Source of the DNA: Candidatus Arthromitus sp. SFB-mouse-Japan | GTDB taxonomy: Bacteria > Bacillota > Clostridia > Clostridiales > Clostridiaceae | NCBI RefSeq assembly: GCF_000270205.1 | Contig: NC_015913.1 | Location: 210,001 to 242,000, forward strand | Length of the DNA: 32,000 nt | Direction of reading: 5' to 3' | In this document: positions 2,923-30,277 of the stretch, piece after piece | Layout: each line of letters starts with the position of its first letter | Position numbering within the stretch: the first letter of the stretch is position 1 | The notes under the pieces: generated by a model | Database searches by the model: none | The model's input: the letters and a program-made list of their open reading frames with translations, nothing else | What the model was told of the DNA's origin: nothing | Translations under genes and position numbers: made by a program

Positions 2923-4224
<1,302 letters not shown>

Positions 4225-4229
4225 TATAA

Positions 4230-4260
4230 GTGGGGTTTTGAGACCCCACATTTTTATTTT
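4230..4260 (+). terminator. Rho-independent terminator after eno
   Basis: GTGGGGT (4230-4236) pairs with ACCCCAC (4243-4249) around a 6-nt loop. It is followed by TTTTTATTTT. Confidence 0.8.
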
Positions 4261-4450
4261 TGGAGGATTTTTACAGGATTTATATATTGAATAAAAACAT
4301 ATACAAATAGTTATAATTTTTATATATACTAATGGAAAAGTTAATTAAAATTTAAATGTTATTTATTTTAATCATTATTTGTGATATTATTTTTTTGGAT
4401 ATAAAAATACTTGTAAAGAAGTATGGTAGTACTTTTATAGGGAGAATATA

Positions 4451-6763: not shown

Positions 6764-6801
6764 ACTTTATTTAGATTTTCGAATTTAAATAAAGTTTTTT
6801 T
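6764..6801 (+). terminator. possible weak terminator or attenuating hairpin between secG and rnr
   Basis: ACTTTATTTAGA (6764-6775) pairs with TTTAAATAAAGT (6784-6795) with one mismatch, followed by a T6 run. The stem is all A/T plus a few G/C, so it is probably leaky. Confidence 0.4.
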
Positions 6802-6817
6802 GTTTATGGAGGAAATT

Positions 6818-8896
6818 ATGATTGAAAAAATATTAAAGTGTATTTATATAGATGATTTGAAATTAAATTATAAAGAAATGTTAAAGAAACTTAAGAGTTC
6901 TAATATAAAACTATTTAATAAGAGTTTAGATAAGCTTAAAAATGATGGAGTTATATTTAAAGATAAAGATGGGAGATTTGTAAAAAGTAAGAAGGAAGAT
7001 ATTTATTTTGGAGTTTATGAGGGTACTAGAAAAGGATTTGGATTCTTATTACTTGAAGAGGAAAACGATATTTTTATACCTAGAACTTCATTAAATGGAT
7101 GTATGGATAGAGACACTGTAATTGTTAGGCTTATAGAGGATAAGTGCACTAGTATAAGGAAAGTTGGAGAGGTTATTTATGTAATTGAGCATTATAATAA
7201 AGAGATAATCGGAGAGTATCAGGACTCAAAATTTTTTGGATTTGTTATTCCAAGAAATTATAATATAAACTATGATATTTATATACCAAAGAAATATAAA
7301 ATGGGTGCTAAAAGTGGGGATATTGTTTCTGTTAAGATAACAAAGTATCCAAGCGAGGGTAAAAAGCCTGAGGGAATAGTTAGTGATATACTTGGGAATA
7401 AGGACAGAAAAGATATTAATATGCGTGTTCTTATGAAGAAGTACAATTTAAAAGAAGATTTTCCTAAGGGAGTTTTAAATGAACTCAAACGTTTTCATAT
7501 GGAGGTTATTGAGGATGAATTAAGTTCTAGGAGAGATTTAAGAGATTTACCTATTGTTACTATTGATGGAAGTGATGCTAAAGATTTAGATGATGCGGTT
7601 TATGTTAAAAGACAAGGGGAGGAGTATATACTTTCTGTACATATAGCAGATGTTAGTCATTATGTAAGATATAGAAGTGAGCTTGATAAGGAGGCTTTAA
7701 AGAGAGGAACTTCTGTTTATTTAATAGATAAGGTTGTGCCAATGCTTCCCAAAGAGTTATCAAATGATTTATGTTCTTTAAATTCTGGAACGGATAAACT
7801 TACTTTAAGTTGTGAGATGGTTATAAATAAGTCTGGTGAAGTAACTCGTTATGATATATTTGAGAGTGTAATAAGAACTAAATATAGATTAACTTATGAC
7901 AATGTTCAGGATATAATAGATGACAATACAAATGAATTTTCTGATATATACGAGATGATTTTTAATATGAAGGATTTAGCAGAGATATTAAATAGTAGGA
8001 GAGAGCGTAGGGGAGCTATTAATTTTGATTTTCCAGAATGCAAGATATCTTTAAATGAAGATGGAGATGTTTTAGATATAAGTGCTTTTATGCGTAAATT
8101 TTCTCACAATATAATAGAAGAATTTATGCTTTTATGTAATGAGACTATTGCAGAGCATATGTTTTTTTTAAATTATCCATTTCCGTATAGGATACATGAG
8201 GAACCTGATATGGAGAAAATTATGAATTTAAGGGATATACTTCATAATTTAGATTATAATTTTAGGATTAATGATAAGGTGTATTCAAATCAAATACAAA
8301 AGGTGCTTATGCATTTTAAGGGTAAAGATGAGGAGATGTTTTTAAGTAAATTTATTTTAAGGAGTATGTCAAAGGCAAGATATTTAAAAGACTGTATTGG
8401 TCATTTTGGACTTTCGACTAAATATTATTGTCATTTTACATCACCTATTCGAAGGTATCCTGATTTAGTTGCTCATAGGATTATAAAATTATCTTTAAAA
8501 GGTGGTATAGGGGAGAGATTATTTAAAAATTTATCTGAAGAGGTCTCTATTTGTTGTGAGAATTCATCATTAAGAGAGATGGAAGCAGAGGAATGTGAAA
8601 GAGAACTATATGATATTAAAAAAGCTGAATTTATGAAAGATAAGATTGGTGAAGAGTATGCTGGAATAATATCATCATTGACGAGTTTTGGATTTTTTGT
8701 TGATCTTCCAAACACTGTAAGGGGGCTTGTTCATATTAATGATATGGAGGATGATGATTATTATTTTGATGAGGAGAGTATTTCTTTAATTGGAAGAGAG
8801 AATAAAAATGTGTTTAAGATTGGTATGAAGGTTCAAGTAAAGGTTTTAAATGTTATTTTGGAGAACAATGAAATTTATTTTGGGTTAAGTAGGTGA
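6818..8896 (+). CDS. rnr: ribonuclease R
   Basis: RNB catalytic motifs ([26 protein letters not shown]), cold-shock-like N-terminal region and a C-terminal S1 domain ([15 protein letters not shown]). GGAGG at 6808-6812 favours ATG 6818 over the ORF-track TTG 6800. Confidence 0.9.
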
Positions 8897-8901
8897 AAAT
8901 C

Positions 8902-9363
8902 GTGAGTAAAAAATCAAATGTAATATCTAAAAATAGGAAGGCTTTTCATGATTATTTCGTTGAGGAGAATTATGAGGCTGGAATTGTTTTGGTTGGTACT
9001 GAGGTTAAATCTATAAGATCTGGTGGGGTTAATTTAAAAGATAGCTATGGAGTTTTTAAAAATGGAGAGTTATATATAATAAATATGCATATAAGTCCCT
9101 ATGAGAAGGGTAATATATTTAATAGAGATCCGCTTCGTGATAGAAAGTTATTACTTCATAAAAAGGAGCTTTCGGAGCTTTTTATAAAAAATAATCAGGA
9201 AGGATATTCTCTTATACCTATTTCTCTTTATGTTAAAAATGGAGTTATAAAAGTAAATTTGGGACTTTGTAAGGGTAAGAAAAATTATGATAAGAGGGAT
9301 TCTATGCTTGAGCGAGAACATAGAAGAGATATTGATAGAGCTATGAAGGAGAAATATAGGTAG
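8902..9363 (+). CDS. smpB: SsrA-binding protein SmpB
   Basis: Motifs [16 protein letters not shown] and LLLHKKE. AGGTG (8891-8895) overlaps the rnr stop TGA (8894-8896) and lies 6 nt before GTG 8902. GTG 8893 is the alternative start. It lies immediately upstream of ssrA. Confidence 0.9.
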
Positions 9364-9368
9364 TATAA

Positions 9369-9397
9369 TTGAAAAAATATTTTTAAGGTGGTATACT
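9369..9397 (+). promoter_or_regulatory. candidate sigma-A promoter of ssrA
   Basis: TTGAAA (9369-9374), a 17-nt spacer, then TG-n-TATACT (extended -10, 9389-9397). It lies about 20 nt upstream of the mature tmRNA 5' end. Confidence 0.5.
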
Positions 9398-9418
9398 TGT
9401 TAAGGATAATTTTTTTAA

Positions 9419-9778
9419 GGGGGCGTATTTTGGTTTCGACGGGGGTACTGGAGTATTTAAATAGCGAGTAGAGTTTTAGTGGATTCTCTTAAAAAATTTA
9501 CTAAAAAAAGTAAACGACAAAAATTATTCTTTACAAGCTGCTTAATTAATAGCTAGCTTCATCTAGTTTGCGAGTCCTACGGCGTAGATGTAGGTGTAAA
9601 ATTTAAGTAGGGAAACGAGCCTTAAAAAGCTTTGATTAAGGAACGGGATTTATGAAGCTACTTTATATAAATTTTGTTTATGGAAGTTATATAGGGGAAT
9701 TTAAAACATAAACTGCACTCGGAGAAGTTTAAATATGACTACTTTCGGACAGGGGTTCAATTCCCCTCGCCTCCACCA
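9419..9778 (+). ncRNA. ssrA: tmRNA (transfer-messenger RNA)
   Basis: The 5' end GGGGGCGTATTTTGGTTTCGACGGGGG pairs with the 3' end CGCCTCCACCA, giving a 7-bp acceptor stem with G3:U (alanine identity). T-arm GGACAGGGGTTCAATTCCCCTCGCC with encoded CCA. The internal tag frame ends in TAT TCT TTA CAA GCT GCT TAA (stop at 9543-9545). It lies directly downstream of smpB. Confidence 0.9.
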
Positions 9779-10056: not shown

Positions 10057-13000
10057 TTGGGGAAAACGTTTAGAAAATTTAGAAGTCTTGCATTCTTTTT
10101 ATGTTTTATGTTTATATTTGAATTTTTAGTTTTAAATTTTGGTATTAAGTCAAAAGAGGCAAAAGCTTCTACAATAAATGCCATTGTATCTATCGATTAT
10201 GATTTTAAAATTGTTGATAACAAAATTGCATTTGATTTTACAAAAAGTTTATCAGAAGGAGACTCTATTGAAAGTATTGTTTTGAAAAAAGGAGAAAGTA
10301 ATTTAAATATTAAGGCACATGATAAAGCAAAGAAGATCTGGACAACAGATGTTCTTTTTGAAAAAGCACAATATGAGCTTAATATTACATTGAATACTAA
10401 TAATTCAGTAAAAAAATTAATTTCTACATTTTACTATGAAGATTATGAAATGGAATATTTTGTACCTGTAGTTAAGGCAGATGGGAATAATTTAAAGATT
10501 ACTGGTTTAACAAATTGGGCAAATAAATTTTTAGAAACAGATGGTGTAATTATTGATATTTTAGCAAGCAATGGCACTGTAGTTATTCCAGAAGTCACAA
10601 AGACAATTAAGGAATGCAAGAGTGATATTGTACTAACTGGTGCTAAATCAAAATTAACTAATCTTAAAGCATATGTTGTAAGAGCTAGATTGAGAGAGTC
10701 TGGTACAGAATTTAACCGAATTTTTTTAAGTGAATATACTGCAGATAGTAATAATGCGGCTAGACAAATGAATTCTAAGATAAAATCTATTACTAGAAGA
10801 GATAATGGAAATTATGATATTGATGTTTCTGTATATTATAATGTGGCATCTGATGCTTCGCTTTATATTTATTATGCTGGTTCTAATTTAGGATCAACCT
10901 CAGAAAGAGAGAGTAATAATAAAAAGATATTTAAATTTCAGGATATTCCAATTACTCTTGGTACAAGATGTTTTCTTAAAGAAGGTGGTAGTGCAGTTAG
11001 AGAAGACTATTTAGGATTTTATGAAAAAACTAAATTAGATGCTAGTAAAATTAATTGTGAAAGTTTAACACTTATCAATGATGAGGCTAGAGGAGTAAAA
11101 ATAAAGCTTAATAAGTCTATGAGAGATGTTTTTTCAACTACTGGGGGAAATAATAAAGTAGTTATTTATGAGCTTAATGATAATTTAGGTAAAACTAAAA
11201 TTGCTGAACAAAGCAGTATAAATTCTCTTAGTACAAATAATATTAATCTTAATAATGATAAAGTTTTGGAAAAAGGAAAAGCTTATTTTATTGAATTTAC
11301 AAATGGAGAAAAATCATTTGGTCAGTCATTTATATATTATCCTATAAATTCATCAGCATCAGAGATAAAAGAAACATCTGTTAAAATAACTTGGAGTTAT
11401 CCAAGCGGATATATACCAGCATCTGGAGATAGGGTTGAGATATTTTTAAGAGATAAGGCAAGTAGTGATACTTTTTCATCAATACCAAAATTAACTTTAG
11501 CTCATGGAAATAATGGTGTTAATTTTTCAAATACTAGCTCAACTGTTGTAACTGGAATGGCTCCAGGAACTAATTATGAGGCGAAAATTGTTTTATATAA
11601 CCAAAGGGCAATAACAAATACCTTTGTAGATTTTACAACACTTCCTTTTGCACTTACTAATTTTATTGAAGTTGAAAATTGTCAGTATAGGGATGCTTAT
11701 TATAAGGAGGCATGGCCTAGGAATAGAGAGGTTAATATAACTTGGGATTTTGAGCCAACTAATATGCAATTCAATGAAGGTGATAAAGTTGAAATCTTTA
11801 TAAAACCAAATGGTAGTGGTGCTTTTTCAGGGTATCCAAATACCATAAATTCAGTTGATTCGTCCTATTCTAACCCAGTATTTTCGGCTACGCAGAATTT
11901 AAATAGTGTTAAGAGAGCAACTATTAAAATGCCTAGTTGGGAAAAAAACTATCATGTTGACCTGATTTATACGATAGGTGGTAAGCAAATAATAACAAAC
12001 AAGCCATCTGGTACAGAAGGTGAAGATGGATATAATAGGAGAACTATTAATTCTAGACCAGGACCAGTTACTATAAATATTATTGATCAAAAACAGACTT
12101 CAGCTAAGATTGTTTGGCAAGTAGATACAGGCGATGAAAATAATGAATTTACTCCATATCAGCCAGAAAATGGGCATTTAGTAAAAGTACATTTAAGGAA
12201 AGTAAATTCTTTAAACGATACTAGCACTGCTTTTTATGATCCAGATAAAATTTTTGAATATGTTTATGGTCAAAATTGGAATTATAGTAGAGATCCTCAA
12301 GAATATATGTTAGAAAATCTTGAACCAGATCAATGTTATAGAGCTAGAATTCAGCATTTAGTACAGTTTCCAGAAAATTTTAATGGGGCTAGTTATGCAG
12401 GAAGTACAGCTTACTTTAATTTTAAAACAGAAGCTTTTAGCATTACATCATTAAATTCAGAAAATCAGACAGATGATATATCAAAGGTAAAACTTAAGTG
12501 GGAAACTCAAGGTGAAGTTGAGTTTGGAGAAGATGATAAACTAGAAGTATTCTTAAAAGAGAGTACTAGCTCAGAGTATCCAGAAACACCTATACAGGAT
12601 TTGAATTTAACCCCATCAACTTCGAAAGAAGCAACAATAGAAGTTCCAAGATTTAATACTCTTTATAACGCTAAAGTTGAATACACAATCAAAGGTAAAA
12701 AGATTAATAAGTATGTTTTAGTTCAAGTAGATGCAGAACTTAATATTGATGTTACTGATATTAAAACTGCAAATAATAATTGGACTGCAAAAGTTAAATG
12801 GACTTATCCAGATGGATATAAGGAAAATAATAGAACAAATGATAAAGTTAAATTAACTGTAACAAAGAAAGAAGAATCAACAAGAAATTCGTCTCTTCCA
12901 AATAATGAAGAAATAGCAGTTACGACAAAAGAAAACACTTTAACGGATCTTGAAGCAAATGCAACCTACGATGTTACACTTAAATTCTTAAATGATGGGC

Positions 13001-15813
13001 AAGAAGTTTATAGTACTTCAACTAGCTTTAAAGCAACAACTGATTTACAAATTGTAGGATTAAATACGTCAAATGTTAAGACCAAAACAGGTACAATAAA
13101 TTGGAGTTTTTCACCTAGTGATAAGAGTTTTAGTAATAGTGATAAGGTTGAGATATTTATAAAAGAAAATACTAAGACATCAAGAAGTGATGATTTATCA
13201 AACTTTACGAAAATTTATACCATGACTCAAGGTGCTAGTACTAGAAGTGGAGATGAAAATATTGTAGTACTTTCAAGTGAACCACAGCATACACAACATG
13301 TAAATAAGACAGGGGATCTTAGAACCTTTAAATCTCTAGATTTAAAGAATTTAGGAGTTAATAAAGATTATACTCTAAAAGTTAGATATACTATGACTGA
13401 AAGTGGATCAAGAGAGGGTGAAAGAGCAGGAGAGACTAAGACTTCAGAGGCAGAAGTAAAACTTAAAACACAGGTTGATGAACTTAAAGCTACAGTTTAT
13501 GTATCAAATCAAACTTCTGCAACATTTGGTTGGGAATATCCACCAGAGTATGAACTTCAAGAAGGAGACAAGATAGAGATTTTTGTTAAAGAGCTTAGTG
13601 AAGAAGGAGGAAATTCAGAAACAAGAGATAGTGGAATTAGCACAGATTATAGTGATCCACTATTAACATTAACTCATGCATCAAGTCAGAATCCAGAAGA
13701 AGGCAAATATGATATGAATGAGGTTACAGCAGTTGATGTATCGGGATTAACACCAGAGAGGAGATATAAATCTAAAATTAAATTTACTATGGGAACAGGG
13801 GAGGATAGCTATTTTATAGAAAAAGAAGTTGATATATCAACAAAATCATTTGAGATAAAGTCATTTGAGATGGATAGTTATCAGGAATACGATATACTAG
13901 TTAACTGGACAGTAGAACCTGAAAATATGGTATTTAATCCAGCAGATACATTAAAGATATTTGTAAAACCTGCAACTGAAGATGCGTATCCAGATGAACC
14001 AGAATATAGTCTTAGGTATGAAGAAAATGCTGCAGGCAAGAGTATAAATAATACTTTTGGTGATTATGTATTAGCTCACTCTCTTGGAGTTGATCAGAAA
14101 ATGAAACTAGAATATAAGGTCGGAGAGAGAACTTATGAAAAAGAACTAGAGTTTAATAATAAGATAAACCCAATTAAAGCGGAAGCAACTGAAGTTAATG
14201 AAACAAGAGCATTAATAAGTATTACTCCACCAGATAATTATGAATTTGTTAGTGGGGATAAACTTTTAATATACGCTATGGATGAATTTTCTGATGGCGA
14301 TTTAATAGATGAAAATAATTTGGTATTTGAGGGAGTTCAAACAGATACTGCTAATATAGCTGATATGACTTTAATTGAATTAAGTTATCTACTACCAGAA
14401 GCAAAATATGATATAGCAATTGTATTAGACTTAGAAGATGGTTATGTCGAGCCAGTACAATTTGAGCTAACTACAACAGGACTTTCACTTACTGATATAA
14501 AACTTGAACAATTAAAATACAATGAGGCACTTATATCATGGAATTATGGTAAAAATGCAATAGATTTCTTTGAAGATTCTGATTACAGTATGACAGATAA
14601 ATTAATAATAGCTCATAAAGAATCTGATGGAACACCTATGCCAGAAGATATAAATTTATTAAAGCAGTTATCTAATACAGAGTATTTAGGAGAGAAAATT
14701 AACTCTGTAGGTGATGCGAGCATAAAAATTGAAGATCCATCAAAAGATTATGATGTTGCCGTTTGTTATGATCTCGGAGGACTATTGTATATGAAAACAT
14801 TTAAAGCATCGTATTTATCAGCATCAGTTGATGAAGCATCAATAACATCAGAAGGAGCAAAAATTAATTGGAAATATCCAACTAATATAACATTTGGAGA
14901 TGCTGATAAAACAGAGGTTTTTGTAAGAAAATCAGATGAAACAAATTATCCAGATTCAGCATCCTTAACATCAACTGGATCAGGAACAACTTCAGGGGAT
15001 TTAACAGGATTAGAAGGTGGGGCATCATATATAGCAAAAGTTCAAATAACCAAAGAAGGACTTCAAATAGATCCATTTGAGGTAACTTTTGAAACACAAG
15101 CAGGATTTGGGGAAGAAACAATAATTGAAGAAATACCTATGGATATTCAAGGAACTGCAGCTGAATTTGTAATACCAGCAGAACTTCCAGTAGATACATC
15201 AGGAACTATTTCATTAAGTATGGGTGATGAGGTTTATCAAGGTTTCACAGCTACATTTAATGAAGATGGAACAGGATTTACAATAGCTCCAACAATACCT
15301 AAGAAGGTTTATACAAACATTGAATTGGAAATTCCATTAGAAAATGGCTCAACTCACAAAATTATAATTCCTGAGTTTACAACACAACCAGAAGATTTAG
15401 CTCAAGATTGGTTAAGTAATGCATACTGGTTTGCATTTGAGAGATTTCCAGATGAGGAAGGATATAATTATTGGTATGCACATAGAATGAAACCAAAAAC
15501 ATTAAATGGCGAGTACTTCTTAAAGAATTTGATGTTCGCTGAAGATGAGTTTACAAATAGAAACTTAGCAGATAATGATCTTATAGCAGCATTATATCAA
15601 ATAGTTGTTAATAGGGAATATGATCAGGGAGGACTTGAATTCTGGATAGGAATATACAATGAAAATCTTCAAAATGCTCAAGGCAACAAAAAGCTTGCCC
15701 AAGAAGTTTTGGTTGATAGAATGGTTCACGAACCAGAGTTTGGAAAGCTTTGTGATAAGGTTGGAATATTCTGGAGACAACAAGATCAAGATGCAGCTGG
15801 AGTGGTTGCGTAA
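10057..15813 (+). CDS. secreted giant surface or adhesin-like protein: signal peptide, degenerate N-terminal modules, ~11 FN3-like modules, C-terminal DUF4214-like domain
   Basis: 1918-aa uninterrupted ORF in a genome where random frames close quickly. AGGAGG lies 9 nt before TTG 10057. Sec-type signal peptide (basic MGKTFRKFR, hydrophobic core, AKA|ST). Recurrent FN3 signatures (xxIxW...DKVEIFIK...L.gL.p...Y.vkv). The C-terminus shows the DUF4214 pattern. The product name is descriptive only. Confidence 0.85.
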   Translation: MGKTFRKFRSLAFFLCFMFIFEFLVLNFGIKSKEAKASTINAIVSIDYDFKIVDNKIAFDFTKSLSEGDSIESIVLKKGESNLNIKAHDKAKKIWTTDVLFEKAQYELNITLNTNNSVKKLISTFYYEDYEMEYFVPVVKADGNNLKITGLTNWANKFLETDGVIIDILASNGTVVIPEVTKTIKECKSDIVLTGAKSKLTNLKAYVVRARLRESGTEFNRIFLSEYTADSNNAARQMNSKIKSITRRDNGNYDIDVSVYYNVASDASLYIYYAGSNLGSTSERESNNKKIFKFQDIPITLGTRCFLKEGGSAVREDYLGFYEKTKLDASKINCESLTLINDEARGVKIKLNKSMRDVFSTTGGNNKVVIYELNDNLGKTKIAEQSSINSLSTNNINLNNDKVLEKGKAYFIEFTNGEKSFGQSFIYYPINSSASEIKETSVKITWSYPSGYIPASGDRVEIFLRDKASSDTFSSIPKLTLAHGNNGVNFSNTSSTVVTGMAPGTNYEAKIVLYNQRAITNTFVDFTTLPFALTNFIEVENCQYRDAYYKEAWPRNREVNITWDFEPTNMQFNEGDKVEIFIKPNGSGAFSGYPNTINSVDSSYSNPVFSATQNLNSVKRATIKMPSWEKNYHVDLIYTIGGKQIITNKPSGTEGEDGYNRRTINSRPGPVTINIIDQKQTSAKIVWQVDTGDENNEFTPYQPENGHLVKVHLRKVNSLNDTSTAFYDPDKIFEYVYGQNWNYSRDPQEYMLENLEPDQCYRARIQHLVQFPENFNGASYAGSTAYFNFKTEAFSITSLNSENQTDDISKVKLKWETQGEVEFGEDDKLEVFLKESTSSEYPETPIQDLNLTPSTSKEATIEVPRFNTLYNAKVEYTIKGKKINKYVLVQVDAELNIDVTDIKTANNNWTAKVKWTYPDGYKENNRTNDKVKLTVTKKEESTRNSSLPNNEEIAVTTKENTLTDLEANATYDVTLKFLNDGQEVYSTSTSFKATTDLQIVGLNTSNVKTKTGTINWSFSPSDKSFSNSDKVEIFIKENTKTSRSDDLSNFTKIYTMTQGASTRSGDENIVVLSSEPQHTQHVNKTGDLRTFKSLDLKNLGVNKDYTLKVRYTMTESGSREGERAGETKTSEAEVKLKTQVDELKATVYVSNQTSATFGWEYPPEYELQEGDKIEIFVKELSEEGGNSETRDSGISTDYSDPLLTLTHASSQNPEEGKYDMNEVTAVDVSGLTPERRYKSKIKFTMGTGEDSYFIEKEVDISTKSFEIKSFEMDSYQEYDILVNWTVEPENMVFNPADTLKIFVKPATEDAYPDEPEYSLRYEENAAGKSINNTFGDYVLAHSLGVDQKMKLEYKVGERTYEKELEFNNKINPIKAEATEVNETRALISITPPDNYEFVSGDKLLIYAMDEFSDGDLIDENNLVFEGVQTDTANIADMTLIELSYLLPEAKYDIAIVLDLEDGYVEPVQFELTTTGLSLTDIKLEQLKYNEALISWNYGKNAIDFFEDSDYSMTDKLIIAHKESDGTPMPEDINLLKQLSNTEYLGEKINSVGDASIKIEDPSKDYDVAVCYDLGGLLYMKTFKASYLSASVDEASITSEGAKINWKYPTNITFGDADKTEVFVRKSDETNYPDSASLTSTGSGTTSGDLTGLEGGASYIAKVQITKEGLQIDPFEVTFETQAGFGEETIIEEIPMDIQGTAAEFVIPAELPVDTSGTISLSMGDEVYQGFTATFNEDGTGFTIAPTIPKKVYTNIELEIPLENGSTHKIIIPEFTTQPEDLAQDWLSNAYWFAFERFPDEEGYNYWYAHRMKPKTLNGEYFLKNLMFAEDEFTNRNLADNDLIAALYQIVVNREYDQGGLEFWIGIYNENLQNAQGNKKLAQEVLVDRMVHEPEFGKLCDKVGIFWRQQDQDAAGVVA
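11350..15100 (+). repeat. intragenic array of ~11 divergent FN3-like modules (repeated at protein level, not at nucleotide level)
   Basis: The conserved B-strand Trp codon recurs at 11392, 11743, 12115, 12499, 12799, 13102, 13531, 13906, (Ile at 14221), 14539 and 14869. The period is 100-143 aa. Each is followed by (D/E)-K-h-E-h-F-h-K and later by L-x-x-L-x-P/x-x-x-Y-x-h-K-h. Confidence 0.7.
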
Positions 15814-15929: not shown

Positions 15930-17393
15930 ATGGTGAACAATAGAAAACAAATATCTAAAATTGCATTACTTCTTATGACATTCTCTGCAATCTTTAATTT
16001 TCCAAATATAATAAATAATAGTATACAGATAGGACTAGCCAACATATCCGGATATTTATTCTCAACTGTAGTTTATTTTATTCCGATTACATTTATAGTA
16101 GCTGAATTTATATCCATAAATAAAGATAGTGAATCGGGCATATATAGCTGGATAAAAACTTCTTTAGGAGATAAGTGGGCGTTTTTGGGTGCTTGGTCTT
16201 ATTTCTTTGCAAATTTATTTTATTTTACATCCCTTATTCCAAACACTTTAATATATGCATCCTATACTCTTTTTGGGAGAAATCTGTTTGATGGGAAAAG
16301 CAGTACTTTTATTTTAGCTTTGGCAAGTGTTATACTTTTTTGGATTGGAACTTATGTTTCAATAAAGGGGGTAAAAGTTTTATCTAAGGTTACAAATATT
16401 GCAGGTATAGCTAAAATATTAATGGGAATTTTATTTATAATATTAGCTTTTGTATTTGTGTTTTTTATGAAAAATCCTCCAGCACAAGAGTTTACGGTTG
16501 AAACTTTAACCCCAAAATTTGATTGGACGTTTTTTATGGTTATGGCATGGATACTTCAATCACTCGGAGGATCTGAAAGCACAGGAGTTTATGTTAAAGA
16601 TACAAAAGGAGGAATAAAGTCTTTTATAAAAACTATAATAACAGCTGTTATTTTAGTTGGTATTATGTATACTTTAGCGTGTGTTGCTATAGGACTCGTG
16701 GTACCTAGGGAAGTTTTAGAAAATAATTATTCAAACGGAATATTTAATGTTTTTTCTATATTAGGTGGTTATTTTGGAATACCTAATATGTTGATGAATA
16801 GATTTATAGGTTTAATACTTCTACTCTCAAATCTTGGATCGCTTGTTATATGGACATCTGTACCTGTTAAAGCTCTATTTTCTGAAATACCTAAAGGAGT
16901 ATTTGGGACTTGGGTTGCTAAGACTGATGAGTTTGGAACTCCATATAATGCACTAAAGGCTCAAGCCATTATAGTAACAGTTTTATTGTTGATACCAGGG
17001 ATTGGCATTGGATCTTTGGAAAGTTTTCTTGAAACCGTTATAAATATGACAGCTGCGACTTATCTCATTCCAATACTTTTTTTGCTTATAGCTTATATTG
17101 TTCTTAGGCTTAAAAAGAATAATATTGAAAGAGATTTTAAAATGGGGAATAGAGGATTCGGAATTTTTATGGGAATACTTTTATTTCTTATATTAATATT
17201 TGTGATATTTATGTCTATATTCCCTGAGCCAGCGTTAATTTTTGATGCTATAAATGGAATTATACCAGAAGGAGAAGGAAATCCTATAATTATATGTGCT
17301 TATAAAGTTTTAGGGCTTATTGTGTTTATATGGTTTGCTCTTATATGTTGGGGAAGACATTCTAAGAATAAGTTAAATATAGATAAGAATTAA
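15930..17393 (+). CDS. APC-superfamily amino acid permease (YjeM/GadC-like subfamily)
   Basis: 487 aa with ~12 hydrophobic segments. The segment FIPITFIVAEFISINKDSESGIYSWIKTSLGDKWAFLG matches the conserved AE...GGIYSW...G..AF block of this subfamily. AAGGAGA SD. Confidence 0.85.
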   Translation: MVNNRKQISKIALLLMTFSAIFNFPNIINNSIQIGLANISGYLFSTVVYFIPITFIVAEFISINKDSESGIYSWIKTSLGDKWAFLGAWSYFFANLFYFTSLIPNTLIYASYTLFGRNLFDGKSSTFILALASVILFWIGTYVSIKGVKVLSKVTNIAGIAKILMGILFIILAFVFVFFMKNPPAQEFTVETLTPKFDWTFFMVMAWILQSLGGSESTGVYVKDTKGGIKSFIKTIITAVILVGIMYTLACVAIGLVVPREVLENNYSNGIFNVFSILGGYFGIPNMLMNRFIGLILLLSNLGSLVIWTSVPVKALFSEIPKGVFGTWVAKTDEFGTPYNALKAQAIIVTVLLLIPGIGIGSLESFLETVINMTAATYLIPILFLLIAYIVLRLKKNNIERDFKMGNRGFGIFMGILLFLILIFVIFMSIFPEPALIFDAINGIIPEGEGNPIIICAYKVLGLIVFIWFALICWGRHSKNKLNIDKN

Positions 17394-24693: not shown

Positions 24694-25365
24694 ATGAAAA
24701 AGGGGATCTTAATAGCATCATTTATTATTATAATTTTGGGTTTCATATTCATCTTTAAATATTTTAATAGAGGGAAATTAGGGCAGGTTATATCAAAGAG
24801 AATAATAGTTATCGATGCAGGACATGGTGGTGTTGATACTGGATCTATAGGATATAGTAATACACTTGAGAAGGATGTAACGCTTAATATTTCATTAAAG
24901 CTTGGTCAAAAGCTTGAGGAAAATGGATTTGATATTTATTACACTAGAGAGGAGGATGTTTCTTTGGGAGATAGCGAGTTTTATGATTTAAATAGTAGGA
25001 TTAAAATTATAAATAATTTGAAGCCAGATGTATTTTTATCCATACATTTAAATGGGAGTGAGTACGAAAGTGCTAGGGGAGTTGAAACCTATACCAGATC
25101 ATTAGATAATAAAAGTTATCTTCTTGGTGAGTGTATACAGGATGAACTATCTTCTATAGAGTATACAACAGATAGAGGAGTTAAAACAACTAAGGATAGA
25201 AGGCTTGCTATTTTAAATAGAACAAAATATGTGGGAGTATTACTTGAACTTGGATTTATAACTAATGAAAGTGATGAGGAATATTTAATTTCAGTAAGTG
25301 GACAAGATATTATAGTTGGTTGTATAGTATCCGGAATTTTGGATTATTTCAATAAAATTCAATAG
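24694..25365 (+). CDS. cwlD: N-acetylmuramoyl-L-alanine amidase (Amidase_3), CwlD-like
   Basis: 223 aa. It has an N-terminal TM anchor followed by IDAGHGGVDTG, EKDVTLNISLKL, FLSIHLN and LLELGFITN. Size and architecture match the germination-specific amidase CwlD. The symbol is tentative. Confidence 0.7.
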   Translation: MKKGILIASFIIIILGFIFIFKYFNRGKLGQVISKRIIVIDAGHGGVDTGSIGYSNTLEKDVTLNISLKLGQKLEENGFDIYYTREEDVSLGDSEFYDLNSRIKIINNLKPDVFLSIHLNGSEYESARGVETYTRSLDNKSYLLGECIQDELSSIEYTTDRGVKTTKDRRLAILNRTKYVGVLLELGFITNESDEEYLISVSGQDIIVGCIVSGILDYFNKIQ

Positions 25366-26823: not shown

Positions 26824-26839
26824 ATGAATATATATTCAT
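26824..26839. promoter_or_regulatory. perfect 16-bp palindrome, candidate ArsR-family operator
   Basis: ATGAATAT/ATATTCAT lies 81 nt upstream of the arsR-like ATG and abuts a TTTACA -35-like hexamer (26839-26844). The TGAA...TTCA core resembles known ArsR/SmtB operators. Confidence 0.35.
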
Positions 26840-26919
26840 TTACAAACATACATCTTATATTATATTATTAATATGATAAGTTACAAAATTTAGGAAAATG
26901 AAAGAGGAATAATAGCTTT

Positions 26920-27204
26920 ATGATTATCGCAAATATTAAAGAAGTAGCAGAAATTTTAAGGGTCTTATCTAATGAAAATAGACTCAATATAGTTTGTTAT
27001 CTTCTAGAAAGACCAATGACAGTAAGTGAACTTCATAGTAAACTAAATCATGTAACCCAATCGGCATTATCTCAGCATTTATCAACTTTAAAGGCGCATA
27101 AAATATTAGTTTCTAATAAATCAGGACTTGCGATTACATACTCGATAAATGACCAAAATTTAGGAAAATTAATACAGGTATTAAAGGAAAATTATGGATA
27201 TTAA
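26920..27204 (+). CDS. ArsR/SmtB-family transcriptional regulator
   Basis: 94 aa. Winged-HTH pattern ILRVLSNENRLNIVCYLLERPMTVSELHSKLNHVTQSALSQHLSTLKAHKIL. It lacks the ELCVCDL-type metal site and has only one Cys. Confidence 0.85.
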   Translation: MIIANIKEVAEILRVLSNENRLNIVCYLLERPMTVSELHSKLNHVTQSALSQHLSTLKAHKILVSNKSGLAITYSINDQNLGKLIQVLKENYGY

Positions 27205-27417: not shown

Positions 27418-27446
27418 AGGAGACCTTTATGGTCTCCTGTTTTTTA
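27418..27446. terminator. bidirectional Rho-independent terminator between the convergent arsR-like and Cys-rich genes
   Basis: AGGAGACC (27418-27425) pairs perfectly with GGTCTCCT (27431-27438) around a 5-nt loop. GTTTTTT follows on the + strand, and AAATAAA precedes it, which reads as a T-rich tail on the - strand. Confidence 0.8.
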
Positions 27447-28163
27447 GTCATTCCAAAAATTTGATCCACAACATTGGTTGTTTGAACAAGTTCCACTTTG
27501 AGGTTGAGTGTTACAAACATTTTGTATATATCCAAAGTTTTGAGTTGGATAACCATCTTGAAGTTCTTGAACGTTAGAGTATCCAGTGTTGCAGCATCCA
27601 TCAGTGTTTGTAGTATTACAAGTACTGCAGTTATTATATACTCTGTTTTGGTTAAATGATGAAGTTTCACTACCTAAATACTCAACAGTGTATTCGCAAC
27701 AGTTGTTTTGACTAGTATAGGCACAAGAATCCTCAGGATTGTTACAGCAGCATGAATTTCTCGTTTGAGAACATCCCCCTGAAACATAAGGTGTAGAGGA
27801 TATTGGCATTACTGGTTGAGTAGTTTGACATGGCATGCTTGCGACTATTTTATATTTTTTACAACCAGAATTTCTATTTAGGAATAGATTGAATTCATAC
27901 ATTCCTCTGCAGTTTGAAGTTGTATAAGCTATGAGTTTATATTGACATCCGCAATTGCTTTTTTCAAATAATTGAAGATTTGCATAAGGTATAGATAATC
28001 CAGTACAGCTGTTTACAACCTCTCCTGTTATATATAATTTTTTAAATGGATTGATTGGAATGTTAACTCTAACAGTACAACTATTTTGGCTACTTCCTGG
28101 TTCTACATTTATATTAACAGAGTTTGAAATTGTATTTTGAGCAGTATTGCAACAATAAGACAT
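27444..28163 (-). CDS. cysteine-rich protein of unknown function (24 Cys in 239 aa) with a beta-sandwich-like core
   Basis: 720-nt ORF with AGGAGG 7 nt upstream of the ATG and terminators on both sides. There is no signal peptide or TM segment. The composition is non-random (CC/CCC clusters, N/S/T/Q-rich). The two ORF-track entries overlapping it (27371..27577 +, 27392..27670 -) are shorter and lack an SD. Confidence 0.8.
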   Translation of the reverse strand: MSYCCNTAQNTISNSVNINVEPGSSQNSCTVRVNIPINPFKKLYITGEVVNSCTGLSIPYANLQLFEKSNCGCQYKLIAYTTSNCRGMYEFNLFLNRNSGCKKYKIVASMPCQTTQPVMPISSTPYVSGGCSQTRNSCCCNNPEDSCAYTSQNNCCEYTVEYLGSETSSFNQNRVYNNCSTCNTTNTDGCCNTGYSNVQELQDGYPTQNFGYIQNVCNTQPQSGTCSNNQCCGSNFWND

Positions 28164-28344
28164 TTTTAGTCCTCCTAAAGTGTATATATAATATTTTTAT
28201 CAAACTTCCTTATGGAAGTTTTAAATGTTCTTATAGGGTATATTATTCATTTTAAGTAATTTGTGTTAACGGAAAATAAGAAAATATTAAAATTATTTTT
28301 TTAAACATTATTATATTGTTATATATAGAGGTCTTTGTTAATAA

Positions 28345-28373
28345 AAGAGGATGTGCATTTTGCACTTCCTCTT
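28345..28373 (-). terminator. Rho-independent terminator after nadE
   Basis: On the - strand, AAGAGGAAGTGCA-AAA-TGCACATCCTCTT (one mismatch) is followed by TTTTATT. It overlaps the nadE stop by 1 nt and insulates the downstream Cys-rich gene. Confidence 0.75.
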
Positions 28374-30277
28374 TAGTTTATAAAAGAATTATATGAAGAG
28401 TCTGAACTCATCTTAAAATCTCCTCTTGGAGAGAGTGATATTTCAGTTATTTTTGGACCATCAGGCATGGCTGATCTCTTAAATTGATTTTGAAAAAATC
28501 TTTTTATAAAAATATTTAATGAATTTTTTATGATATCGTTAGGATAGATGTCTTTAAATGCATTTAGAGCTAAAAATTCTATTTTATTAAATGAGGCATT
28601 GTGTTTCATAAAGTGGTATATGAAAAAGTCATGTAATTCATATGGACCTACGATGTTCTCAGTTTCTTGTAAAATTTTATCATTGCTATCTGTAGGAAGA
28701 AGTTCTGGTGATATCGGAGTGTTTATGATATCTATGAGTATTTTTTTTATATTGTCAGATATTGGATAATTTTCATAATAATGTTTTAATAAATGTTTTA
28801 TTAATGTTTTTGGAATAGATGAATTTATGTTGTACATACTCATGTGATCTCCATTATAGGTCGAAAATCCCAAAGCTATTTCAGATAGATCTCCTGTACC
28901 TAAAAGTATTGCACCTTCTTTATTTGATAAATCCATGAGAATTTGTGTTCTTTCTCTTGCCTGTGAATTTTCGTAAGTTATATCAAAAATATTTTCATTA
29001 TGATTAATATCTTTAAAGTGTTGTTTAACTGATTTTGTTATATCTATAGATTTTAATGTAACATTTAATTCTTTGCATAGATTTATTGCGTTATTTTTAG
29101 TTTTATTTGATGTTCCAAATCCTGGCATTGTCACAGCTATTATATTTTTGATATCTATGTTCATGAGATTAAATGCGTTATATGATGATATAAGTGCAAG
29201 GGTTGAGTCTAATCCCCCACTTATTCCAAGTATAATTTTATAACTATTTATGTGAGACAATCTCTTTTCAAGTGAGCATTTTTGCATAATAAATATCTCT
29301 TCAAATAATTCTTTATTCTTTTCATGATTCTCATATATAAACGGGTTTAATTTTATTTTTTTATCAAATTCTCCATATGAAATATCGTCAAATGGGATAT
29401 TAATTATTTTAATATCTCGCTTGTAATATTTAAATGAATCTCTAAATGTTATGTTATTAATTCTACTAGTGTTTAGGTATTCTATATCTATTAATCCTGA
29501 GCATACAGTGTTCTCAAATAAAAATCTATTACTTTCTTTAATTAGCTCACCATTTTCATATATGGCGTTATAAGATGAAAATACAATATCTGTTGTTGAT
29601 TCAGATGGGCTTGAATTTGCATATATGTATGCTGCATTTATTTTGTAACTATGATATTTAATCAGGTTTTTTCTATATTCATGTTTGAAGCTTGTTTCAT
29701 TTGATGCAGATAGATTACATATTATGTTTGCTCCATTTATTGCAAGATATGAGCTATTTGGTATTGGAGCCCATAGATCCTCGCAAATTTCAATTCCTAT
29801 TTTAATATCTTTATAACAAAATAAAATATCGGTTCCGAAGTATGTTTTATCGCCCATGAATGAAACTTCTATGCATTTTATAAAGCCTTCTGAAAAATAT
29901 CTTTTTTCATAAAATTCTTGATAGTTTGGGAGATATGTTTTTGGGATAATACCGAGAATTCTTCCTTTGTGTACCACAAATGCTGAGTTGAAGAGCAAAT
30001 TATTGTATTCAAAAATGCTTCCAATAATAATTAAAATATCCTTATTATTTGAAAAATCTAAGATTTCTTTGATACCTTCATAGCTTTTTTCGAGAGTAGT
30101 TCTTTTTAGGAACATATCAAAACAAGAGTAGGATGTTATTGAGAGCTCTGGGAATACAATGAGTTTTGATTTATCATTTAATGCTTTATTTATGCATTTT
30201 TTAATATTTGACACATTGTGAGAAATATCGCATACCTTTGTATTTATACTCGATGCACTAACTCTTAAAAAATTCAT
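28373..30277 (-). CDS. nadE: glutamine-dependent NAD(+) synthetase (long form with N-terminal CN-hydrolase domain)
   Basis: 634 aa. The nitrilase-type triad context is present (VFPELSITSY, GIEICEDLWAP). C-terminal synthetase domain has the PP-loop GISGGLDSTLAL. AAGGAG SD. Confidence 0.9.
   Translation of the reverse strand: MNFLRVSASSINTKVCDISHNVSNIKKCINKALNDKSKLIVFPELSITSYSCFDMFLKRTTLEKSYEGIKEILDFSNNKDILIIIGSIFEYNNLLFNSAFVVHKGRILGIIPKTYLPNYQEFYEKRYFSEGFIKCIEVSFMGDKTYFGTDILFCYKDIKIGIEICEDLWAPIPNSSYLAINGANIICNLSASNETSFKHEYRKNLIKYHSYKINAAYIYANSSPSESTTDIVFSSYNAIYENGELIKESNRFLFENTVCSGLIDIEYLNTSRINNITFRDSFKYYKRDIKIINIPFDDISYGEFDKKIKLNPFIYENHEKNKELFEEIFIMQKCSLEKRLSHINSYKIILGISGGLDSTLALISSYNAFNLMNIDIKNIIAVTMPGFGTSNKTKNNAINLCKELNVTLKSIDITKSVKQHFKDINHNENIFDITYENSQARERTQILMDLSNKEGAILLGTGDLSEIALGFSTYNGDHMSMYNINSSIPKTLIKHLLKHYYENYPISDNIKKILIDIINTPISPELLPTDSNDKILQETENIVGPYELHDFFIYHFMKHNASFNKIEFLALNAFKDIYPNDIIKNSLNIFIKRFFQNQFKRSAMPDGPKITEISLSPRGDFKMSSDSSYNSFIN

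Follow-up and report, generated by a model that had tools for sequence, protein, structure and literature searches.

SFBM_0215, a cysteine-rich protein of segmented filamentous bacteria, belongs to an unnamed clostridial family and is a candidate component of the spore envelope

Segmented filamentous bacteria (SFB) are the classic Th17-inducing commensals of the gut and spread from host to host as spores; to our knowledge no SFB spore-envelope protein has been characterised so far. In this work we analysed a gene for a cysteine-rich protein of 239 amino acids (aa), locus tag SFBM_0215, which lies in a stretch of 32,000 nucleotides from the genome of Candidatus Arthromitus sp. SFB-mouse-Japan (NC_015913.1, positions 210,001 to 242,000). 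This stretch, with a G+C content of 28.5%, is referred to as the window, and coordinates without a locus name are positions within it. The genes in this region are, in order, those for mannitol-1-phosphate dehydrogenase, a CwlD-like amidase, a MATE exporter, a 94-aa ArsR/SmtB-family regulator, SFBM_0215, the glutamine-dependent NAD synthetase NadE and uracil-DNA glycosylase (ung). SFBM_0215 is encoded on the strand opposite to the ArsR gene, and nadE, located upstream, is co-oriented with it. Our analysis places the protein in a family of spore-forming Clostridia and suggests that it probably has a structural role in the outer spore envelope. We found no literature on SFBM_0215, also when looking for work on the SFB spore coat, transcriptome or cysteine-rich proteins.

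The protein has a mass of 26.3 kDa and a pI of 5.5, and the identical protein P0003 (P-numbers denote family proteins and L-numbers loci) is annotated as hypothetical in SFB-mouse genomes. Cysteine accounts for 24 of the 239 residues (10.0%), against 1.03% across the other 22 large open reading frames (ORFs) of the window. The original prediction, which had been made from the letters of the window, listed 24 cysteines, an MSYCC start, one CCC, four CC pairs and a recurring (N/S)(N/S/G)C context in this ORF, all of which are present on recount: the N-terminus reads MSYCC, the single CCC is at residues 138-140, the four CC pairs are at residues 4-5, 155-156, 190-191 and 231-232, and (N/S)(N/S/G) precedes 8 of the 18 cysteine runs. 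There are also one CxC beside the CCC, one CxxC, 15 tyrosines and two N-x-S/T sequons. The absence of a signal peptide and of a transmembrane segment, together with a low number of charges, had likewise been noted; the maximum Kyte-Doolittle mean over 19 residues is only 0.75, the first 30 residues are hydrophilic and 25 residues are charged. The same prediction recognised no characterised family, and searches of Pfam-A (E<=1), NCBIfam and the PDB sequences returned zero matches to one.

SFBM_0215 is composed of a cysteine-bearing N-terminal segment, a beta-sandwich core and a long tail (Table 1). AlphaFold2 (AF2) run on a 7-sequence mouse/rat alignment gave an unusable model with a predicted local distance difference test score (pLDDT) of 33, and a confident core was obtained only with a 91-sequence alignment of the wider family described below. 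In the latter model residues 41-110 have a pLDDT of about 85-97 per 10-residue block, with predicted strands at residues 41-48, 62-68, 75-82, 88-95 and 103-109; the N-terminal segment, within which the profile match begins at residue 8-16, has a pLDDT of about 70, and the tail (residues 126-239) falls below 50. When the model was compared to the PDB with Foldseek the top 50 hits were mostly transthyretins and 5-hydroxyisourate hydrolases (HIUase), at E of about 3e-3 and a TM(target) of about 0.42. The beta-sandwich originally proposed for residues ~44-110 is therefore right at the superfamily level. At the sequence level the PDB gave no match to the single sequence, and the best match to the profile was the protocatechuate dioxygenase beta chain (E 0.07), also a prealbumin-like sandwich. 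The family has in common with the CarboxypepD_reg/transthyretin domains both the fold and the pattern G-x-V-x-D-x-x-G-x-P-(I/V)...A-x-(V/L)-x-L...(T)-(D/N)-x-x-G-x-Y-x-F...Y-x-(I/L). Matches to PF13620 (CarboxypepD_reg) were found for 33 of the 91 family members at E<0.01, all of them sub-threshold (best 26.6 bits against a gathering threshold of 32.3), and SFBM_0215 itself has no match at E<=1, which leaves it outside PF13620 with a predicted prealbumin/transthyretin-like fold. A domain of this CarboxypepD_reg/transthyretin-like type is a generic module and is uninformative on function.

The tail had been described as a low-complexity region of Cys, Asn, Thr, Gln and Ser, in agreement with its 15 cysteines in residues 116-239, its richness in Asn, Ser, Thr and Gln and its low-confidence prediction. 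It differs by several indels between the mouse and rat proteins and closes, in the alignment of the two, with a conserved motif of 45 residues. This NVQELQD...FWND motif is specific to the long-tailed SFB forms and is missing from the short forms at L003-L005. Within the mouse/rat alignment 13 of the 24 cysteines are invariant, including C4-C5, C138-C139 and C190-C191.

The distribution of the gene in SFB was addressed by sequence searches, which identified orthologues located after nadE in at least seven SFB lineages, namely mouse, rat and five further SFB-type ones. A word-indexed search matched only the mouse and rat clusters, the latter (SFB-rat-Yit and rat-like metagenomes) at 59-65% identity. 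Scanning 1.84 billion representative sequences with a mouse/rat profile in HMMER added two more full-length relatives of 247 aa (P0020) and 231 aa (P0021), which come from two further SFB-type genomes with the gene order nadE, homologue, an extra gene, ArsR and MatE. In three more SFB-type genomes, those of Ca. Dwaynia gallinarum (a chicken-gut metagenome-assembled genome, MAG), MAG.106 and an Arthromitus MAG, a homologue of 135-146 aa is located directly after nadE. NadE identity between these SFB-type lineages is 65-78%. The mouse and rat proteins share 67% aa identity with 29 gapped columns and an intact frame, and the dN/dS is 0.36 (0.38 in the N-domain and 0.32 in the tail), while the neighbouring genes have values of 0.01-0.27, making SFBM_0215 the fastest evolving gene in its neighbourhood. 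All 32 near-identical variants keep the reading frame. The sign of a non-functional ORF named beforehand, lack of conservation or a disrupted frame in relatives, was not encountered, and the gene is under purifying but relaxed selection.

The surroundings of the gene vary between SFB lineages. The extra gene in the genomes of P0020 and P0021 (L084:8777-9388 and L086:8730-9362, both on the minus strand) is an ORF of 203-210 aa between the homologue and ArsR; its N-terminus is signal-like and it matches no Pfam domain. In mouse and rat a spacer of just 240 nt separates the two genes, and tblastn detected no remnant of the extra ORF there. At L003:5303-7508 (-), in a chicken-gut MAG, and at L004:8580-11161 (-) the ArsR and MatE genes are replaced. 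L004 contains several paralogous ORFs beginning with MLSKKF(R/G)LRKLN and having signal-like N-termini, one of them with long Gly/Ser-rich stretches, which look like a lineage-specific secreted protein family.

The scan with the mouse/rat profile also returned ten shorter proteins (130-270 aa) matching only residues ~8-112 of SFBM_0215. A profile built from SFB sequences alone reached non-SFB members at E values of 4e-10 to 9e-4 over residues 8-112 and, in the reverse test, a profile of 79 non-SFB members recovered SFBM_0215 at E 6e-18 (58 bits, residues 16-198), so that shared composition does not account for the relationship. Iterated profile searches extended the family to about 140 proteins, every one of them annotated as hypothetical, in Clostridium paraputrificum, C. 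weizhouense, C. taeniosporum, C. cylindrosporum, Sarcina and Alkalithermobacter, and in MAGs of Cellulosilyticaceae, Filifactoraceae and Oscillospiraceae. With orthologues in at least seven SFB lineages and these homologues in other spore-formers the protein can no longer be called an orphan, as had been done originally. Across 138 family members the median length is 163 aa and the median number of cysteines 13 (8%), the tails have a median of 13% cysteine, and 78% of the members have a cysteine N-terminal of the (I/L)GNSxD motif. SFBM_0215 shares with them a significant profile match that spans the N-terminal segment and the sandwich, and a high cysteine content with cysteines both in the N-terminal extension and in the variable tail. 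It belongs to a family of spore-forming Clostridia, composed of the GNSxD motif, a prealbumin-like sandwich and a cysteine-rich tail, that has neither a name nor a Pfam or NCBIfam model.

The gene neighbourhoods of the family outside SFB were analysed at eight genome loci and 19 independent metagenome-contig loci. About 16 of the 23 informative non-SFB loci had a spore-envelope cluster context with genes for SPOCS/SipL, DUF11, collagen-like and glycosyltransferase proteins. SPOCS (DUF3794) is the domain of SipL, of CotE-like morphogenetic proteins and of the cysteine-rich lattice proteins CsxA, CsxC and CdeC, CsxA and CsxC being cysteine-rich proteins of exosporium and parasporal lattices (bioRxiv 10.64898/2026.09.03.749163). 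Proteins combining DUF11 with a CsxA-like part have been proposed as spore-fibre anchors (PMC12357932), and cysteine-rich exosporium genes have been documented to lie together with genes for collagen-like proteins and glycosyltransferases (PMC7333573). The locus of C. paraputrificum (L089:1-16543, JBNOOG010000005.1) encodes, in this order, a DUF11/CLIPPER protein of 566 aa, the family member P0075 (180 aa) and two SipL/SPOCS proteins (158 and 160 aa), followed by a DUF11+SPOCS protein (415 aa), a DUF11 protein (269 aa), a 349-aa protein, a further DUF11 protein (267 aa), a 240-aa protein and a glycosyltransferase. The ribbon-appendage cluster of C. taeniosporum, whose promoters are of the sigma-K type, is composed of CRD1 (564), HYPO1, HYPO2 (158), HYPO3 (160), CRD2 (413), P29a (269), GP85, P29b (269) and CL2 (PMC5749712). 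By gene order and protein sizes the C. paraputrificum locus is the counterpart of this cluster, and P0075 sits in the HYPO1 slot, between the CRD1-like and the HYPO2/HYPO3-like genes; the match is one of position. We know of no function for HYPO1. The C. taeniosporum genome paper of 2018 held the ribbon-appendage cluster to be possibly unique among clostridia (PMC5749712). It should be noted that, by the same correspondence, HYPO2 and HYPO3 have SipL/SPOCS-domain proteins as their counterparts and CRD2 a DUF11+SPOCS fusion.

The homologue P0105 of C. taeniosporum, at a distance of 6 kb from CL2/P29b, opens an operon that also encodes an NTP-transferase and glycosyltransferases, and C. weizhouense shows the same arrangement, with the homologue first in a sugar-nucleotide/glycosyltransferase operon. 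On a 959-kb Clostridium-type contig a family member is found amid six SPOCS genes, a gene for a 526-aa collagen-like protein and glycosyltransferases; in an Oscillospiraceae MAG tandem paralogues are followed by two SPOCS genes and a gene for a 1243-aa DUF11 protein; and a local search with a hidden Markov model (HMM) revealed additional paralogues in three of the genome clusters. The 19 metagenome loci contain 69 neighbouring ORFs of >=100 aa, of which 21 matched PF12673 (SipL/SPOCS), four DUF11, one collagen repeats and two GT1 glycosyltransferase. A SPOCS gene was present at 10 of the 15 metagenome loci having any neighbouring ORF, and DUF11 at one more. Location in such a cluster is a frequent, not an obligatory, feature of the family. 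Often two or three paralogues occur in one spore-envelope cluster, in tandem at L091:7429-8612 (+) and at further sites at L089:362-874, 7983-8540 and 16005-16541 and at L104:927-2037 and 4073-4405, while P0029 (269 aa) carries two copies of the domain within one protein.

The organisation of SFBM_0215 as a single-gene unit with an AGGAGG sequence 7 nt before the ATG, two bracketing hairpin terminators and a promoter of its own was borne out at each of these points: the Shine-Dalgarno sequence is in place, both hairpins are real by folding energy and z-score, and a conserved promoter element precedes the ATG by about 100 nt. The 2-kb region around the gene has six terminator-like sites where 0.4 are expected. 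The promoter element occurs in the same register in all SFB orthologues, with the consensus TT(A/T/G)(A/T)CAC-N15-(G/A)(A/C)ATA(A/T)TAT(A/G), which can be compared to the sigma-K consensus mACm-N16-CATAnnnTA (PMC5749712). A similar match, with 0-2 mismatches, is located upstream of the homologues of C. taeniosporum, C. weizhouense, L091, L092, L093 and L094. Eight of 14 homologues fit the sigma-K consensus with 0-1 mismatches (none at L091; one in mouse, rat, L086, L005, C. taeniosporum, C. weizhouense and L093) and four others with two. At least seven of the eight core positions are matched in 13 of 16 family upstream regions, among which the SFB orthologues are not independent samples, against 18% of 193 controls from the same loci. 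The promoter is conserved and real, and both a sigma-K and a sigma-A reading fit it. A hairpin in the predicted 5' leader is found at a similar place, with another sequence, in rat, L086, L003 and L004; the z-scores are weak (-2.4 to +0.9), and the hairpin could, tentatively, stabilise the mRNA or be due to chance.

Table 1. Features of SFBM_0215 and its flanks (positions in the window; residues of the protein)
Feature	Position	Strand	Residues	Remarks
Intrinsic terminator 3' of SFBM_0215	27418..27438	.		-13.7 kcal/mol, z -4.2; T-runs on both strands; convergent with the ArsR gene
Coding sequence of SFBM_0215	27444..28163	-	1-239	24 Cys; ATG start, stop codon 27444-27446; annotated hypothetical
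C-terminal motif NVQELQDGYPxQxxGYIQN...(C)...SNFWND	27447..27575	-	197-239	mouse, rat, P0020, P0021
Tail rich in Cys/Asn/Ser/Thr/Gln/Tyr	27447..27818	-	116-239	15 Cys, among them the CCC and three of the CC pairs
Transthyretin/prealbumin-like (CarboxypepD_reg-like) beta-sandwich core, predicted	27819..28052	-	38-115	Cys 53, 71, 73, 85, 101, 112
Conserved N-terminal segment (QNTISNSVNINV...SCTVRVNIP)	28053..28142	-	8-37	family motif (I/L)GNSxD...EI(K/R)(A/V)D, from alignments
Vicinal Cys codons C4-C5 (MSYCC)	28149..28154	-	4-5	unchanged between mouse and rat (alignment); also present in P0020 (MSCCN) and P0021 (MSCCT)
Shine-Dalgarno AGGAGG	28171..28176	-		7 nt before ATG; TAAGGAGGAC kept in five other SFB-type orthologues
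5'-leader hairpin, 8 bp, tentative (AAACUUCC-AUAA-GGAAGUUU)	28202..28221	-		from folding
Conserved promoter AACA-N16-AATAATATA	28239..28267	-		one mismatch to the sigma-K consensus mACm-N16-CATAnnnTA
nadE terminator	28344..28374	-		-16.8 kcal/mol, z -6.7; shields SFBM_0215 from read-through

Starting from the gene, its conservation, its predicted fold, its family with the associated neighbourhoods and its conserved promoter, we infer that the protein is expressed in the mother cell, located on the spore and cross-linked by disulfides, and SFBM_0215 is, in our view, probably a structural component of the spore's outer envelope, be it of the outer coat, the exosporium or an appendage layer. A disulfide-cross-linked coat or exosporium protein was one of two hypotheses of the original prediction. 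Of the two it is the one favoured here; it is the gene neighbourhood in other Clostridia which supports it, and not the arguments originally offered, a cwlD-like gene in the window and a compositional analogy to CdeC. The protein would be made in the mother cell without a signal peptide, from its own promoter, probably late and of the sigma-K type, on a monocistronic and strongly translated mRNA, and would then be deposited on the developing spore. Proteins of the coat and exosporium usually lack signal peptides and transmembrane segments. The transthyretin-like sandwich (residues ~38-115) would serve as an assembly or packing module, and the cysteine-bearing N-terminal stretch and the long cysteine-rich tail as flexible connectors. 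Adjacent cysteines seldom pair with each other, which leaves each doublet free to bond to two separate partners; the five vicinal CC/CCC motifs may thus act as branch points at which intermolecular disulfides join SFBM_0215 subunits or other envelope proteins once these are concentrated on the spore surface. Branching of this kind is seen for the double-cysteine N-terminal connector that cross-links the S-ENA spore pili (PMC12357932), and the proposed mechanism also fits the principle of crystallising first and cross-linking afterwards put forward for CsxA, CsxC, CotY and ExsY (PMC7333573; bioRxiv 10.64898/2026.09.03.749163).

Several observations weigh against a role in the spore envelope. 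SPOCS, DUF11 and collagen-like genes are absent from the window and from all SFB loci (Pfam, and a local SPOCS HMM on the window), so that neither SFBM_0215 nor any SFB orthologue is located in a spore-envelope cluster, and three non-SFB homologues (L092-L094, from Alkalithermobacter and two others) are isolated among housekeeping genes. The SFB proteins are divergent, the near-invariant W46, H80, D84 and Q90 of the family being replaced in SFBM_0215. The mouse promoter site is also sigma-A-like (TTAACA-18-TAATAT, 9-10 of 12 positions), and its -10 element starts with A instead of the consensus C. The tail has no confident model, so that its cross-linking role is deduced from composition, and SFBM_0215 and all members of the family carry a hypothetical annotation only.

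These points are shared in part by an alternative in which the protein belongs to the non-sporulating life cycle of SFB (for instance as a cytoplasmic or envelope component of filaments, of intracellular offspring or of the differentiating holdfast), is expressed from a sigma-A promoter and, being on a divergent branch, does not share the spore link of its family. The sigma-A match, the position of the SFB gene among housekeeping genes such as nadE and ung, the strong divergence of the long SFB forms with gain of a lineage-specific tail, and an evolution faster than that of every neighbour, as is often the case for proteins of host interaction, would all fit. However, with no signal peptide, transmembrane segment or sorting motif there is no obvious route to exposure on the filament surface, the homology to the spore-cluster family is solid with profiles in both directions, and the promoter is common to SFBM_0215 and to homologues in spore clusters. 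Coat-protein genes are, moreover, normally scattered and monocistronic. We regard this alternative as unlikely. A narrower variant of the envelope role, in which the protein is not a bulk lattice protein but a scaffold or carrier for glycosylation of the spore surface, or else anchors or adapts fibres of the collagen-like or DUF11 kind, draws on the homologues of C. taeniosporum and C. weizhouense that come first in NTP-transferase/glycosyltransferase operons, on the richness of the tail in Ser, Thr and Asn and on the O-glycosylation of the F-ENA-3a spore fibre on Ser/Thr (PMC12357932). Against it stand the lack of glycosyltransferase, collagen-like and DUF11 genes near the gene at any SFB locus and the presence of just two N-x-S/T sequons; the idea is wholly inferential, and we hold this variant to be improbable.

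The second hypothesis of the original prediction was that SFBM_0215 is a metallothionein-like protein that binds or sequesters metals under the control of the adjacent, convergent ArsR/SmtB-family regulator. The protein does have 24 cysteines, including a CxC beside the CCC and a CxxC, its neighbour is a bona fide member of the ArsR/SmtB family (NF033788, 69.7 bits, over the cut-off), and the two genes are adjacent in mouse, rat and L005 and separated by one inserted gene in L084 and L086. Yet no metallothionein family matched SFBM_0215 in Pfam-A (E<=1), and metallothioneins differ in composition and fold from a protein with 10% cysteine, 15 tyrosines and a folded beta-sandwich. The regulator, read from its sequence, lacks the alpha3 CVC and alpha5 DxH...HxxE ligand motifs, and its best specific models (BigR, SdpR and PagR, all under cut-off) are regulators not concerned with metals. 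Instead of being divergent as in smtB-smtA, the two genes converge with 240 nt and a terminator between them; ArsR is missing beside the gene in L003, in L004 and in all eight non-SFB genome loci, and the mouse and rat ArsR proteins are 100% identical where the two SFBM_0215 proteins reach only 67%. A metal role is thus very unlikely. It is still less credible that SFBM_0215 is a spurious or non-functional ORF or the precursor of a ribosomally synthesised peptide, for which the low-complexity tail and the lack of an annotated function could be quoted. Its presence in at least seven SFB lineages with an intact frame and a dN/dS of 0.36, the conserved ribosome-binding site and promoter and the confident predicted fold of its domain all speak against this, as do a length of 239 aa, far beyond that of known precursors, and the absence of radical-SAM, LanM/LanB and cyclodehydratase genes nearby in the window. 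The spurious-ORF reading in particular is effectively refuted by conservation and frame.

With a structural role in the spore envelope as the preferred reading, the protein can be compared to known spore proteins. CsxA and CsxC of Clostridium sporogenes and CdeC of C. difficile are, like SFBM_0215, cysteine-rich and without a signal peptide; they are made in the mother cell, with a proposed self-assembly locked by cooperative disulfides, and their genes lie beside collagen-like and glycosyltransferase genes (PMC7333573; bioRxiv 10.64898/2026.09.03.749163). Homologues of SFBM_0215 are encoded directly beside SPOCS genes, SPOCS being the CsxA-type domain. The protein itself differs from this group in having no PF12673 match (E<=1), and an HMM built from ten SPOCS neighbours finds nothing in the window. 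The fold is also different, a predicted transthyretin-like sandwich as opposed to the SPOCS tripod, and a relationship to CsxA was rejected on the grounds of domain and fold. CotY, CotZ and ExsY of the Bacillus crust and exosporium basal layer are of the class proposed for SFBM_0215, that is small, cysteine-rich, disulfide-stabilised outer-layer proteins, but are from a different taxon and unrelated to it in sequence (no family in Pfam-A at E<=1). The folds of CotY, CotZ and ExsY are described as very different from those of the clostridial proteins (bioRxiv 10.64898/2026.09.03.749163). The subunits Ena1B and Ena2A of Bacillus S-ENA (DUF3992) combine a flexible double-cysteine N-terminal connector with a cysteine-bearing beta-sandwich and inter-subunit disulfides (PMC12357932). 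SFBM_0215 resembles them in its MSYCC start, and most members of its family have an N-terminal cysteine, but its core is prealbumin-like and not a jellyroll, its C-terminal tail is long and neither DUF3992 nor DUF4183 matches, so that membership of S-ENA or F-ENA was rejected. SFBM_0215 is most like CsxA/CsxC/CdeC and CotY/ExsY, yet stands outside all of their families, and would represent a new fold and family among cysteine-rich spore-envelope proteins. In a speculative extension, to which we give only a limited chance, the family, with its transthyretin-like sandwich and cysteine-rich connector arms, would be a third class of spore-envelope proteins, different in structure, that assemble by themselves, are locked by disulfides and work alongside the SPOCS (CsxA-type) lattices, and the long-tailed, fast-evolving SFB form would make up the outermost layer of the spore.

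Some other features of the window should be mentioned. The ArsR gene (26920-27204, plus strand) encodes a single cysteine, has a dN/dS of 0.013, far more conserved than the surrounding genes, and a promoter-like site of its own at 26839-26868; its nearest terminator is the hairpin shared with SFBM_0215, 214 nt past the stop codon. The amidase gene at 24694-25365 (+) encodes an Amidase_3 protein that scores 133 bits against the CwlD equivalog model (cut-off 221.55 bits) and is not securely CwlD; the mouse and rat SFB versions share only 69.5% identity (dN/dS 0.27), and taken alone the gene is weak evidence for sporulation. A compact trans-translation module of RNase R, SmpB and tmRNA is found at 6800-9778 (+), with the tmRNA at 9419-9778 (175 bits). 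Directly 3' of the tmRNA gene an ORF of 1918 aa (10057-15813, plus strand), in which the only recognised domains are fn3 (431-517) and a C-terminal DUF4214 (1828-1868), looks like a giant surface-type protein of SFB.

If confirmed, the family would provide a third fold for the strategy of crystallising and then cross-linking that is known from CotY/ExsY and CsxA/CdeC, and a family could be assigned to HYPO1, an unexplained slot in the appendage cluster of C. taeniosporum. The approximately 140 unnamed homologues, found in many Clostridia next to genes for CsxA-type SPOCS, DUF11 (P29-type) and collagen-like proteins, point to an overlooked component of exosporium or appendage assembly. For SFB themselves, SFBM_0215 is a concrete spore-envelope candidate, abundant-looking and lineage-specific, with a possible use in raising antibodies, in spore detection and in studies of host specificity. 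Its rapid divergence between host-specific SFB lineages adds interest to this setting: if the protein does form the outermost spore layer, that layer, differing between these lineages, could contribute to host-specific persistence, germination or antigenicity of the spores.

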